DNA of 62,955 nt, the filler included, from Collodictyon triciliatum (Eukaryota), in NCBI GenBank assembly GCA_043381765.1. It is 18 parts of 17 records of this genome, joined end to end, with 100 filler letters (N's around TTAATTAATTAA, not from the genome) between each part and the next. Parts side by side here need not be neighbours in the genome. Positions count along the whole stretch, not along the records: positions 48,108 to 51,447 come from JBHJMP010007455.1; positions 51,548 to 56,082 come from JBHJMP010007456.1; 16 more parts are not named here. One strand, written 5' to 3'. The number at the start of each line of letters is the position of its first letter. Within the stretch, counting starts at the first letter, position 1. The notes under the pieces were generated by a model, which had not been told where the DNA came from, ran no database searches, and saw only the letters and a program-made list of their open reading frames with translations. Made by a program: the position numbers and the translations under genes. Shown here piece by piece: positions 49,882-56,082 of the stretch.

Positions 49882-51610
49882 TTTTAATACATTCCGAACA
49901 GTTTTTATCCTTCCCAAAATTTATTTTGATTATCAGAGGATAGAAAATTGAGTGTGGTCCTTCAGAAGGAATGCTACACTTCTCATGAAATATATCATGA
50001 ATAAAAATCGGAAAGTATTGTCATCTTTTTCTCTGTCTTAAGTTTTATAAAAAAAGGACAAACTTGCCCTGCAGTCATTTAAGCGCTATCGACAATTTTT
50101 CTGATTTATCATATTCTTATTTTTTTAAAAAGGAAATATATTAATCGTTTATACCATTTCATCATAACACGGAAACAGGCAATCACTAGCTGTGATTTGA
50201 AAAATAGATAGCCCATCAAATTTTACCCACGATTTTATCACAAATCGATTCTTGAGCAATATTTAACCGATTCATTTGAGGAAGCAACTATCTTTACCAT
50301 ATAGTGGTAGTCTGGATAGGCGTTGGGCTACTGTCGCTTGGAGTCTAAATATTGCATGGATTGATTAAATTTTCATTCGCAACCGCGAAAAGAAGGACAG
50401 GGGATATGATTTATTCAGAGGTTATAGTATATACACCAAACCGCTTTTTTTTCCATAAAATCACCTTATGTTTATATTTTCGATATAGCACCTCTCTTCT
50501 TACCTGCATCTTCGCAAATAACTTTTTTTTTAAAATGCGCACTGTTGCAGCATTTGATGAAATACCATTCGTGTATCTTATGTTTCAGGTCAACCTTAAT
50601 ACGCTACTGGCACAAAGCCTATCATTATGATTATCCGATGTTTCGTTTCTATAATTCAATGATTAAATCTGTCGCTATATTTTCTGCACCGCATAAAAAA
50701 AAATTAAAATAATCATCACCTTACCCGATTCTGCATTTTTTAGGATTAAATGTAAATAAAACAACATTCGTGGAATTCGCTTGCCTTTGATATTGAGTAG
50801 AGCTTTTGCGACAAACGTATCAATTGCCAAAGAAAAAAAAATGACATGGTACCTGAAGCCGGCGATGTGTGATTCACAAACGGAACGGGTGAGTGTCTCT
50901 AGAGCAAATTATCCTTGTAGAACACCATGGGCTAACGTCATACAAACAGTTTTTCACACGCCATGTGGTCACACCTGCAATACGCTGAAAGTTACTCAAT
51001 TAGCTTTAGTGGTATGTTATTCATATGCAACCCTATATTCTTGAATTCTGTGTGCTATCTCACAAAGCACAAACTGCTCAAAACTGCAAACGTGAAACTT
51101 CCATTTTTTGATATTGACATATGCGGCAAACATGTCACAATCCTGCAATGCGATCAGTTTTTTTCTTTTTCCAAACTTTGAACACCACACACTCTGAAAA
51201 CCGCGCGCGTACACCGGCAACCAAACAAACTGCGCCATTTCCAATGAACCTAGCTTTCCTTTCTTTTGCTGCGCCCGCTGGCCTGGAATCGGACACACTC
51301 GATGATGAATGTCACGATATTTTCATACGAGTGGCTTCAAAAAAACAAAAAAACAATCAAAAAAACAAAAAAAAAAACAATCAAAAAAACAATCAAAAAA
51401 ACAATCAAAAAAACAATCAAAAAAACAATCAAAAAAACAATCAAAAANNNNNNNNNNNNNNNNNNNNNNNNNNNNNNNNNNNNNNNNNNNNTTAATTAAT
51501 TAANNNNNNNNNNNNNNNNNNNNNNNNNNNNNNNNNNNNNNNNNNNNAAAATGTTTATTTTCCATAGCAGAATTTTTACACGATGTACAAAAAATACATA
51601 CGCGATAGAT

Positions 51611-51640
51611 ATATTTTCCCCAAAATTTTGGGGTAAGTAT
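51611..51640. terminator. Palindromic hairpin downstream of the 130-aa ORF
   Basis: Perfect CCCCAAAATTTTGGGG (51618-51633) with imperfect extension. The terminator role is inferred. Confidence 0.35.
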
Positions 51641-51692
51641 ATAAAAAAATGGGCCAGTCTTCAACTCTTTTTTTTTAATTAGGTTGGTCCGT

Positions 51693-52650: not shown

Positions 52651-53805
52651 TTAGTTCAGAAACATTTTTTTTAATATTTTCATCTCCTTGGCTTCATATC
52701 CACCGAGGTAAGCCCACCGTTCTATCTCCTTGTATGTCCTCGGTCCATACTTTTTTCCATTCTGTACACCATAATAACCACCATTGCCATCGGCATTGAT
52801 AGTTATCTGCGAAATACCATTTGTAAATGCAATTACTTTACCAATTGGACTGCCGTCTTTTGCAACTCCTGTGATTTTTTCTGACGCAAACGTGGATATT
52901 GGAGTATGTCCAGCTGGCACTTTTTGTTCACCCTTCATATATTCAGCCATAGCCCTGTTTTGCACTTGCATTTTTTTAATAATGTCAAGTCGTCTTATCA
53001 ACTCCTGTTCGTCCTCATCTGCAAATTCAATATACTGTGCCCCAATTTTATCAAATTCCTTGATCAATTCCGGCTTTTTCATAACCACATATTCATTTCC
53101 ATAATAATATTCTAATCCCTCTCGAGTGAATACTTCAGGAATAAATACTTCTTCATCATCTGTAATAGGGTTATATGTCAACGGATTTATATTAATTCCA
53201 TATTTCATATCTACATCTTGATCATCTGTATATTGTTGTTGCATAGCATTAACTTCAGCTTCATTCAAAGCTGAAAATCGAGGGTCTCTTTGAGGTCCTA
53301 AAGCATTTTGAATTTGAATATCTCCAGCTCTAATTTCTGCTCGACCAGCTACACCTGGTTGTCTTTGCAGTCCTTGTAATTCACCCTGTACATTTGCTAG
53401 TCTTGTGTTTGTCGTTTCCAACGCACGACCCATTGCAGTTTGGATTTGATCAGCTGATGGCCCACGTGGAGCTGCTGGTGCAGGCGCTGGCTGTGGAATA
53501 TTTGATATTGCACCAGATACAGCATCTAGTTTTTTATTAGTACCTACTAATGCCTCTGTAAATGCTCTTTTCATTGCCTCCGTAAATTGTGAGAGTCCCA
53601 TTTCGACACCCACACGTGGGTCTGTTGGTGGTGTTATTGATGGTCCGGCTCCAGAACTTGGTCGGAGTCCACTTGATGATGAAATTTGAGATCCACTTTC
53701 TTGTGATCCTCCGATCGATGAACCGGCAAATGTTGTACTCATTGATTGTTTTGGTTCTTCAATTGCTTTCTTACTTTTACCTCCGGGTGGTGTTGTTCCG
53801 CTCAT
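52651..53805 (-). CDS. Hypothetical protein, 384 aa, intronless
   Basis: Long ORF with S/G-rich N-terminus, coiled coil and globular C-terminus. It starts 20 bp after the upstream stop. Confidence 0.85.
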   Translation of the reverse strand: MSGTTPPGGKSKKAIEEPKQSMSTTFAGSSIGGSQESGSQISSSSGLRPSSGAGPSITPPTDPRVGVEMGLSQFTEAMKRAFTEALVGTNKKLDAVSGAISNIPQPAPAPAAPRGPSADQIQTAMGRALETTNTRLANVQGELQGLQRQPGVAGRAEIRAGDIQIQNALGPQRDPRFSALNEAEVNAMQQQYTDDQDVDMKYGININPLTYNPITDDEEVFIPEVFTREGLEYYYGNEYVVMKKPELIKEFDKIGAQYIEFADEDEQELIRRLDIIKKMQVQNRAMAEYMKGEQKVPAGHTPISTFASEKITGVAKDGSPIGKVIAFTNGISQITINADGNGGYYGVQNGKKYGPRTYKEIERWAYLGGYEAKEMKILKKMFLN

Positions 53806-53824
53806 ATATTATTAGATAAAAAAA

Positions 53825-56082
53825 TTATGCAGTGAGTCGAATATCCAAAAAAAATTTGTCCTCTACAACCCAAATTCTGAGAGTATTATCTGGGATTTTC
53901 TTGCTGTATTTTTTTGTTTTCCACTGAAAACTTTCTTCCTCTGTAAATATTGGACCCCTGCGCTGTTCTTGTTGTGTTTCATCAATATATATATATTGTG
54001 GTTCTGGTTGATCTAATTCTAGGTCATCGTCATCCAACTCTATTATTTCTAAATCTTGTGGGGTTGCACGTACAATTTCCATATTTCTAATATCAACATC
54101 ATCTTCATCTTTTTTTTCATATTCCATTTCTATTAAAGCAAGTTCATATTCATTTTCAATCATCGGCTCATATTCTAATAATAATTGCGGCGGTTGAGTT
54201 TGTTGTGTGGCCTGTGAGCTTACCGGGGAATCTGGTGGAAGTCGTAATTCTAATGGAACCATTTGATTGAATAAATTAAGACCATCCAATGTCAATCCTT
54301 TTTTTCGATAAATATCTAAAATATCTTGCCTTGGTTCTAAAACATTGAATGAATATTTATATTTGGTCAATACTCCTTTTTCATTTTCTCTTTCTTCTTC
54401 GATAATTTCAATAAAGCGGTTTCGCATCGGCGCAGGTAATTGTTTTTCTATTATAAACTCATATTGAAAACTTGGAAAACCTTCAACTAATTTTTTATAT
54501 GTTGTCAAATCTTGTTTTTTATTCACATATGTTACTTTATCCCAAGGAACCAGTTGCTGTTCATTACTCTCTAAATATTGTTCTGGAATTTTTAACTTTT
54601 TTATAGCTGCAATAGAATTTGAACATAAATCATAAAAATCACAGGGTACTCCATCTTTAGGTTCAATTAATTCTGTTATAAATGTTGAGCGTCTTGCATT
54701 TTCTGGTTTGCGTAGCACTTTATCCATTAAAACTAAAAATTGTGCAAGTGTTCCATATTTTACTTCTTTATAACTAGAAGGAATAAGAGTAAGTTCTGTT
54801 CTGGCTCTTTGGTCTTTTTCTGAAGTTGTACTCCATACAATCTGAAGAAATTTATCCCAAAGTTGATCCACACCATTGGCTAACATAACTTGAGAGTAAT
54901 TTCCTGATTTTTCTGTTTTTTTTAGAATTCTTTCTTGAAATGTTCTAAAATCATCTCGAAACATAGGTCTCAAATATTTATTATAAAACTGTTCCATAGT
55001 TAAATTTTCATTAGCAAACAGATTTCGAGCTATACTTGTTTGGGGTGATGGTCTAGGTGTTAAAACCGTATCGGGTTGTGACGGAGAAATGGAAACAGGG
55101 GTATTTGCTGCCGTCCGTAGTTTTGAAACAGGTGTTTTTGGAGTAGCCCATTTATTAATATTTGAGCCACCCTCTGCAAATAATTTCGCTATTTCAGCAT
55201 TTGTAAATATTTCTCCTTGAGCCTTTTCTTCTTTTGCTCTTTTTTCAATAACTCCTATTTTAGCTGATAAACTAGCATACTTATCTAATATCAATAATCT
55301 TTCCTGTGATTCAGGTAGCTGACCTTTAATATTTTCAACATTACCACGTAATGCTTTTTTGAATTCTCTTATAGCATAATTTAGATCACTTTCTTGTGCT
55401 TTTCTTTGTGTTACGTTTTCACCCAGTTGAATTATTTTTTTTAGTTCATTGTATAAATTTGCAATATCGTGTTGTTCGTCATTTATAATTGCTATTTTTT
55501 CACTTGTTGGTGTAATTTGACCTGGTAATCGTTTAGGGGTGACAGGCCTTTGAGGCAACGCTGAATTTGTTGGATTTACCCGAGTTTCGTCTTCAATCCG
55601 AGCCATCAATGTATCATTTAATTTGAAAAGCAATTCTTCATAGTGTTTTTGTTTAGACTCATTTTCTTCTTTTTCAGCTTCTTCTACTTTTCTCTCCAAG
55701 TAGTCCTGCAATTTTTTTAATTGATTGATATCAGTTATTTTTCCAGCTTTTAGGTCTTCATCTAGTCTTTTGTCTCCAGCGCTAGGTGCAAATACAGCTA
55801 GCTGTTTTTTTGGGGGTTGTGTTGGAGGTAGTTCTACGGGTTGCACCGGTGCTATGTATTCACGACCAGCATCATAAATAAAAGTATTATAAAAGTGCTC
55901 TTTGTGTCTATTAGTAAATGATGCGTCACTAAAAGTAGCTTTTAAATTTGCATTCTTTTCTGATAGTCCTTTAGCTGTCAAATAATTTAATTCTCTCCTT
56001 AAATACACACCATCGGGACTTATTGAGTTTATTAGATACAGTTTATTTGCTTTATCCCATACAAAACCATAATTAACAATTG
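53825..56082 (-). CDS. Hypothetical protein, over 750 aa, intronless, 5' truncated
   Basis: The frame stays open from the 727-aa ORF to the contig end (IVNYGFVWDKANKLYLINSISPDGVYLRRE). Coiled coils, TP-rich linker and acidic tail. Confidence 0.85.

Follow-up and report, generated by a model that had tools for sequence, protein, structure and literature searches.

Genes of the contig

We analysed a window of 62,955 bases from the genome assembly of Collodictyon triciliatum (GCA_043381765.1), in which 18 small contigs, most of them 3336-3348 bp long, are chained by N44-TTAATTAATTAA-N44 linkers. The contig at positions 51548-56082 (4535 bp) carries four tightly packed genes, namely three open reading frames (ORFs) designated ORF1, ORF3, and ORF4 and, between ORF1 and ORF3, a gene for an HNH endonuclease (Table 1), and is described here as a likely fragment of a small double-stranded DNA virus.

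Of this contig, 95% was covered by stop-to-stop ORFs with a minimum length of 100 amino acids (aa), compared with 11-72% in the other 17 contigs, and its longest ORF (751 aa) exceeded those of the other contigs, which reached at most 430 aa. The initial annotation of this DNA had described a packed, intronless, and microsatellite-free contig with intergenic gaps of about 20-40 bp. The analysis bore this out, with four ORFs separated by spacers of 40, 33, and 19 bp and, among the TRF repeats listed (150 of 166), a single trivial 15-bp repeat at 51719-51733. The GC content was 0.347, and neither GC nor dinucleotide bias distinguished the contig from the others in the window.

ORF1, ORF3, and ORF4, which had been annotated as orphans of 130, 384, and more than 750 aa matching nothing recognisable, likewise gave no Pfam or PHROG family of credible score, and no match to an ordinary eukaryotic or bacterial family, which would have spoken against the viral reading, was found for any of them. 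ORF1 had no homologue in a word-indexed search of 5.8 billion proteins. A near-perfect palindrome of 34 nucleotides (nt) lies at 51609-51642, approximately 50 nt downstream of the ORF1 stop; it consists of two 17-nt arms that are 88% complementary, without a spacer and with CCCCAAAATTTTGGGG at its core, and it might form a hairpin at the 3' end of a transcript or act as a regulatory site.

Related loci and shared gene order

Scanning of JGI metagenome contigs with the ORF3 alignment yielded three related loci, L001, L002, and L003, all of which are partial. L001, a 7.3 kb contig, combines a Pox_A32 ATPase, a D5-like helicase, and an rve integrase with homologues of ORF4 and ORF3 (Table 1). The occurrence of these three hallmark genes within 7 kb points to a Polinton-like virus (PLV) or virophage. 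L002 carries a short form of ORF4, an ORF3 homologue, an HNH gene on the opposite strand, and a small ORF, while L003 starts inside an ORF3 homologue that is followed by the opposite-strand HNH gene and then a small ORF. The order and orientations of the L002 and L003 genes match those of the window contig, and the three-gene block of ORF4, ORF3, and opposite-strand HNH gene is conserved with these metagenomic relatives. ORF1 showed no similarity to the small ORFs in the same position of L002 and L003.

The cluster representatives of ORF3 and ORF4 homologues reported identical longest contigs (12670 and 10102 nt), which fits the two genes travelling together, and the longest contigs recorded for any family member were 10-17 kb. 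IMG/VR scans with the L001 ATPase, ORF3 alignment A1, ORF4, and alignment A4 each found no relative.

None of the 14 gene starts examined on the window contig and on L001-L003 was preceded by a Shine-Dalgarno-like motif, a feature that the initial annotation had named as one that would contradict its viral reading; the leaders were instead A/T-rich and often ended in ATAAT. In the intergenic DNA of the relatives, the motif AAATGCGTTT[GA]AAT was observed upstream of the L001 helicase gene (~1240-1270) and in the divergent spacers between the HNH gene and the small ORF of L002 (~2440-2470) and L003 (~940-970), whereas the window contig showed none. In the L001-L003 sub-lineage, the motif may act as a promoter or origin element.

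Occurrence in public metagenomes

Parts of the contig were contained in 20 of the 22 public runs listed; these come from 14 studies, and most bear the label freshwater metagenome. The highest shares of the contig in single runs were 0.40 and 0.26, and no RNA run was among those listed. Four runs from four studies were compared with it, of which X1 is unlabelled and X2-X4 are labelled freshwater metagenome. All four contributed records at 99% identity or above (Table 1), and X1 matched 54511-55780 without any difference. The records from these runs are short contigs of low depth, those below 99% identity represent more distant relatives, and stretches without cover in the compared runs (e.g., 53524-53675) carry no meaning. 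By these matches, the same strain is present in several freshwater samples. Its near-unchanged recurrence across the metagenomes of several studies suggests a widespread virus, with a microbial eukaryote of fresh water as its probable host.

The contig is incomplete at either end. At its left end, a contig of run X2 matched the first 180 bases (51548-51727) exactly and ran on for 54 nt beyond the contig start; the virus genome therefore continues past the contig.

HNH endonuclease and its fixed position

The 163-aa protein matched the Pfam families NUMOD4 (E = 2.6e-07, 31.2 bits; cut-off 23.4) and HNH_3 (E = 2.5e-09, 37.1 bits; cut-off 24.8), as well as 21 PHROG HNH families (best E = 6.8e-30). 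Residues 17-104 aligned with residues 12-102 of I-HmuI (PDB 1u3e; E = 2.7e-10), and the stretch D-H-x-D-G-N...N-L-R-W-V-x-Q-x-I-N was identical in the two proteins; the catalytic residues presumably lie within this HNH stretch. Of the NUMOD4-HNH-AP2 architecture initially proposed, the NUMOD4 and HNH_3 domains were thus recovered above the Pfam cut-offs, and the AP2 domain was not, as Pfam detected none at E up to 1 in the whole protein or at E up to 10 in its C-terminal 64 aa (residues 100-163). The C-terminal part was covered by PHROG HNH families, with phrog_99, for example, extending to residue 156. The protein also had matches in 1200 phage records; none reached 60% identity, and the best lay at about 35-38%. 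Such a likeness to phage nucleases is expected for its family wherever it is found.

Orthologues in the same position and orientation are encoded by L002 (45% identity over the full length, E = 1e-38) and L003 (42% identity over the full length, E = 2e-40). In its conserved frame, ORF3 would run to 52598, so that its tail and that of the HNH gene would share 20 nt (52598-52617); a tail-to-tail overlap of exactly this length is found in L002 (1908-1927) and L003 (403-422). The HNH gene was therefore present at the locus in all three genomes in which the region downstream of ORF3 is visible (the window contig, L002, and L003), and no HNH-less joint was seen among the metagenome contigs compared. 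Fixation at the locus in 3/3 genomes whose orthologues have diverged to 42-45% identity is not what recent homing would produce. The gene appears to be a long-term resident of the locus, whatever its origin, and no presence/absence polymorphism was seen. Because of this fixation, the initial description of the enzyme as a homing endonuclease is doubtful.

On the other side of the gene, metagenome contigs of runs X2 and X3 matched the window contig as far as 52083 and 52124, beyond which 151 and 255 nt of different sequence follow. What flanks the ORF1/HNH junction on either side therefore differs between related strains, and the ORF1-side flank of the HNH locus is variable among relatives.

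As a long-term resident of the locus, an I-HmuI-like nuclease would nick or cut DNA. Its most likely role may be a selfish or competitive one, in which related co-infecting genomes would be cut so that its own flanks are copied in, and we give this a somewhat less than even chance. Processing of its own virus genome during replication or packaging would be a less likely role, although it is still worth considering.

ORF3 family, frame break, and model

Eleven homologues of ORF3 were found, comprising three long forms (407-416 aa) and eight short forms (about 260-273 aa). Common to all of them is a ~150-aa C-terminal domain, the identity of which is 65-70% even when long and short forms are compared (alignment A1); the N-terminal half of ORF3 is of low complexity. 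A profile search of 1.84 billion representatives recovered 29 clusters at E ≤ 0.001, and the 27 new, distant family members had no Pfam domain above the cut-off, only sub-threshold noise. The family was not found by tblastn of ORF3 against 50,697 phage records, nor by searching GTDB prokaryote genomes (185,579 species) with alignment A1, and the ESM Atlas gave no usable match with the ORF4 homologue P0002 and with P0007.

In alignment A1, the window ORF3 stops 20-odd residues short of all homologues. The missing, near-invariant C-terminus is encoded just downstream in another frame, and the two frames part within an 8-nt homopolymer run (Table 1). Related contigs from X1 and X3 (about 88-90% identical) vary in the length of this run, which is covered by no 100%-identical metagenome record. 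The frame break is either a homopolymer assembly error or a real defect of this copy. Programmed frameshifting at the run was considered and dropped, as the related contigs read through in one frame.

A model of full-length ORF3 had a pLDDT of 46 and was not used, whereas the AlphaFold model of the C-terminal 162 aa, built from a 37-sequence alignment, reached a pLDDT of 86.6. The latter comprises two short helices and a long helix, a five-stranded antiparallel sheet, and two further helices. ORF3 was also considered as a capsid protein, and this candidate was rejected, short of proof, because the C-terminal model, with its helices and five-stranded sheet, contains no jelly roll. From the model, ORF3 might be a DNA-binding protein acting through a SAP/LEM-like helix-extended-helix element at the start of its conserved domain; this is a lead, not a finding.

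ORF4 family

Three homologues of ORF4, P0002-P0004, were found in a collection of 5.8 billion clusters, each of them originating from public runs that had been assembled. Their lengths are 1022-1053 aa, and they are 69%, 51%, and 29% identical to the window protein. About 270 N-terminal aa are therefore missing from the window ORF4. P0002 is encoded, like P0006, on a contig of 12.7 kb, P0003 and P0007 on one of 10.1 kb, and P0004 on one of 16.6 kb. Short forms of 282-340 aa are encoded on L001 and L002 (alignment A2). The L001 short form was 38% identical to P0002 over 146 aa (E = 3e-26), with the P-x-T-P-x-R-x-P and RIW...DI motifs in common. The family is thus modular, ranging from 340 aa (L001) to 1053 aa (P0004), and its layout consists of a conserved N-proximal domain, a helical and proline-rich middle, and a conserved C-terminal RIW...DI motif. 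P-x-T-P-x-R-x-P was invariant in all six ORF4-family proteins of A2 (window residues 179-186, region 54500-54530), and its T-P-x-R core fits the cyclin-dependent-kinase site consensus.

Pfam gave only sub-threshold noise for P0002-P0004, and PDB profile searches with alignments A2 and A3 and with the L001 helicase gave no match. ORF4 is possibly a large partner protein, maybe tied to the virion or to a replication factory. A capsid role was also considered for ORF4 and dropped, the protein being largely helical or disordered by eye, which is not proof. In one X3 contig, positions 54124 and 55662 are joined, with four other letters between them and 1537 nt of ORF4 left out, and the shorter side measures only 24 nt; this joint may reflect a relative with a short-form ORF4 or an artefact.

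Nature of the contig

We consider it likely that the contig is a genome fragment of a small double-stranded DNA virus of the PLV/virophage assemblage. The initial annotation had left the choice among a virophage, a Polinton-like element, and a nucleocytovirus; the viral reading gained support, and the hallmark genes of L001 narrow it toward the first two. Under this assignment, the contig is a new lineage of a known virus type, unrepresented in the IMG/VR scans, and not a new kind of element.

Several observations weigh against this assignment. As the initial annotation had remarked, the window contig itself carries no hallmark gene, that is, no capsid, packaging ATPase, polymerase, or integrase gene. 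No double jelly-roll capsid gene was seen on L001, and capsid and penton families had no Pfam match among the four ORFs of the window contig or the ORFs of L001-L003, which are partial contigs. With no capsid gene seen, the virus class therefore rests on the relatives. The link to the hallmark genes runs through a single 7.3 kb contig, at identities of 51% for ORF3 (best segment) and 33-38% for ORF4. The best run, X1, carries no label for an organism and might be connected with the source sample. For the C-terminal model of ORF3, Foldseek returned nothing at E ≤ 0.001 from PDB and BFVD, and VIA-align matched residues ~7-70 to SAP/LEM/Rho-N-type chains at Z-scores of 3.8-6.0 (Table 1), against a chance level of ~7-8; a SAP domain was found neither by Pfam at E up to 10 nor by PDB profile search. 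Finally, giant viruses, too, encode A32-like ATPases, D5-like helicases, and HNH nucleases, and phages encode the last two of these.

That overlap would also allow the contig to be a piece of a far larger nucleocytovirus or mriyavirus-like genome instead of a PLV of 15-40 kb. The A32 ATPase and D5-like helicase are nucleocytovirus core genes, HNH and GIY-YIG nucleases are described as frequent in giant viruses in one study (PMC12220804), and PLVs grade into larger viruses according to another (bioRxiv 10.64898/2026.06.19.733378). The proximity of the L001 integrase gene to the ATPase and helicase genes within 7.3 kb is, however, the gene density of a small element, the longest contigs of family members do not exceed 10-17 kb, and the IMG/VR scans returned no relative although that database holds many giant-virus contigs, so that we regard a large genome as quite improbable. 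An origin from a bacteriophage or a bacterial contaminant is more improbable still. The matches of the HNH protein to PHROG families and phage records are what such an origin would predict, but ORF1, ORF3, and ORF4 have no credible PHROG match, ORF3 is absent from the phage records and the GTDB genomes searched, the gene starts lack Shine-Dalgarno-like motifs, and L001 carries Pox_A32 and rve genes. The long disordered segments of ORF3 and ORF4, rich in proline, serine, and threonine, would also be unusual for phage proteins.

Alternatively, such a virus could have integrated into the nuclear DNA of the sequenced eukaryote, the contig being an endogenous, possibly decaying copy; we regard this as unlikely, although less so than the two origins above. 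L001 encodes an rve integrase, GC and dinucleotide bias show no difference from the host contigs, and the broken frame of ORF3 would fit a decaying copy. In addition, one source reports that integrated PLVs are common in protists and that A32-like genes of the class are found in some animal genomes (bioRxiv 10.64898/2026.06.19.733378). However, the contig contains no host junction, and a metagenome contig extends the viral sequence past its left end. The other three genes are intact, and ORF3 is broken within a homopolymer of 8 nt, where assembly errors are typical. Moreover, pieces that are 99-100% identical occur in three freshwater-metagenome runs from three studies, and co-assembly from the environment is therefore likelier than integration. 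Most likely, the contig was co-assembled with the sequenced eukaryote and does not lie in its chromosomes.

In the assembly, the contig at 51548-56082 should accordingly be flagged as viral and probably not host. What is new is that two unannotated conserved families, ORF3 and ORF4, together with a fixed HNH gene, mark a freshwater Polinton-like lineage missed by IMG/VR protein scans; the ORF3 frame break and the near-identical occurrence across freshwater metagenomes are new as well. The conserved overlap of the nuclease gene and ORF3 makes it possible to test whether a homing-type nuclease has become permanently established in a virus of eukaryotes. A bolder reading, which we consider doubtful, is that the contig belongs to an unsampled PLV branch in which an I-HmuI-type nickase was domesticated to an essential function and locked by its overlap to a SAP-like protein with a modular giant partner. 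If true, the three-gene block would form a new module for genome processing or for competition between viruses. Another bold reading is that the contig may be a viral copy residing in the sequenced eukaryote, on the contigs of which NHL-repeat and zf-RVT ORFs occur; were the carrier of such a copy an animal, it would be a rare instance of an aquatic-type PLV in that group.

Neighbouring contigs in the window

The two contigs flanking the viral contig are 3340 and 3337 bp long. Its length of 4535 bp, which had been noted as breaking the ~3.34 kb size order, was confirmed; it is not the only exception, as the contig at 41350-44565 (3216 bp) likewise departs from the descending order and two contigs of 3345 and 3347 bp are swapped. 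The lengths of the window contigs seem to have been changed after sorting. Since the contig of 3216 bp is an ordinary one and breaks the order too, the size-order anomaly was discarded as a sign of foreign origin.

Among the TRF repeats listed, perfect microsatellite arrays were observed at the ends of most neighbouring contigs (Table 1). Most host contigs start or end in such arrays, and the assembly therefore breaks at simple repeats; the viral contig differs in this respect. Rfam identified a U2 snRNA, a tRNA, and SNORD24 in the neighbouring contigs, and scattered ORFs had Pfam matches to NHL repeats, zf-RVT (retroelement), a proteasome subunit, and part of TCP-1. The other window contigs are eukaryotic nuclear DNA. 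One of them contains a low-complexity ORF of 430 aa on the minus strand (8225-9517), in which acidic/serine blocks alternate with KPA/TPAK repeats in tandem units of 141-171 nt; by its composition, it looks like a Nopp140/nucleolin-like host protein.

Table 1. Features of the probable viral contig, its relative L001, the compared metagenome runs, and the host contigs
Sequence	Feature	Position	Strand	Description
Viral contig	ORF1	51693-52085	-	130 aa, orphan
Viral contig	HNH endonuclease gene	52126-52617	+	163 aa, NUMOD4 + HNH_3; strand opposite to the other three genes
Viral contig	ORF3	52651-53805	-	384 aa as it stands
Viral contig	ORF4	53825-56080 (part extends to 56082)	-	751 aa present, open at contig end
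Viral contig	Conserved ORF3-family C-terminus, other frame	52598-52663	-	21 codons + stop
Viral contig	Homopolymer T8 (+ strand), ORF3 frame break	52665-52672		From the sequence
Viral contig	Non-coding contig end, 3' of ORF1	51548-51692		Without ORF of at least 60 aa
L001	Gene 1			240 aa; Pox_A32 ATPase, 3e-13, 50.2 bits (cut-off 22.8); ~4.6 kb from ORF4/ORF3 homologues
L001	Gene 2			785 aa; DUF5906 D5-like helicase domain, 6.9e-16
L001	Gene 3 (o161)			161 aa; ORF
L001	Gene 4			410 aa; rve integrase, 6.6e-12
L001	Gene 5	5593-6615		340 aa; short member of the ORF4 family
L001	Gene 6	from 6632		ORF3 homologue, directly after the ORF4 short form
Run X1	Matching records			7 of 15 at at least 99% identity
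Run X2	Matching records			13 of 32 at at least 99% identity
Run X3	Matching records			2 of 44 at at least 99% identity
Run X4	Matching records			3 of 28 at at least 99% identity
ORF3 C-terminal model	SAP/LEM/Rho-N-type chains, VIA-align			1e7d, 1a62, 7bu5, 2odc, 2kw9, 2do1, 2rno, 6h9u; Z 3.8-6.0, within chance range
Host contigs	Microsatellite arrays at contig ends (examples)	3449-3569, 6897-6995, 10142-10244, 17036-17136, 47892-48007		TRF

Comparison with known systems

According to two sources, PLVs are abundant in aquatic and freshwater systems, their replication modules vary (pPolB or helicase fusions), and they may carry rve integrases and HNH genes (PMC12220804; bioRxiv 10.64898/2026.06.19.733378). 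The latter places them in the class Aquintoviricetes, with Tetraselmis striata virus TSV and Gezel/PgVV as isolates (bioRxiv 10.64898/2026.06.19.733378). The window contig resembles PLVs in its compact, intronless genes on both strands with short A/T-rich spacers, its aquatic/freshwater occurrence, and its HNH gene, and its relatives resemble them in their A32-type ATPase, their rve integrase, and a replication gene that is of the helicase type and takes the place of pPolB. Unlike in PLVs, a major or minor capsid gene has not been seen so far in this lineage, nothing named corresponds to the ORF3 and ORF4 families, the HNH gene and a conserved gene overlap at their tails in a fixed arrangement, and four protein-based scans of IMG/VR gave no relative.

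Virophages of the Mavirus type have small double-stranded DNA genomes that encode both an A32-like ATPase and an rve integrase, two genes that also occur together in L001. A TCTA-containing A/T-rich stretch just upstream of the window ORF3 and of o161 on L001 is reminiscent of virophage late promoters; the resemblance is weak and not general, the stretch being absent before ORF1 and the HNH gene. In contrast to the Mavirus-type virophages, pPolB and a cysteine protease were not seen.

For the nuclease itself, the closest comparisons are with two PLV genes and with I-HmuI. The Symbiodinium PLV has a NUMOD4-HNH_3-AP2 gene and the Cryptomonas 'Curly' PLV an HNH_3 gene, and the roles proposed for PLV HNH proteins are genome processing before packaging or interviral competition (PMC12220804). 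Going by these descriptions, the window gene is like both in being a free-standing, I-HmuI-like HNH gene; it is unlike the Symbiodinium gene in that AP2 was not detected, and unlike both in that its neighbour is an ORF3-family gene and not an ATPase gene (PMC12220804). With I-HmuI, an intron-encoded HNH nicking endonuclease of Bacillus phage SPO1, the protein shares the NUMOD4 + HNH_3 architecture, whereas the C-terminal DNA-binding part does not align. Unlike I-HmuI, the window gene is free-standing and not intronic and belongs to a virus of eukaryotes, and its locus is conserved among orthologues that are 42-45% identical, a conservation of position that argues against recent homing.

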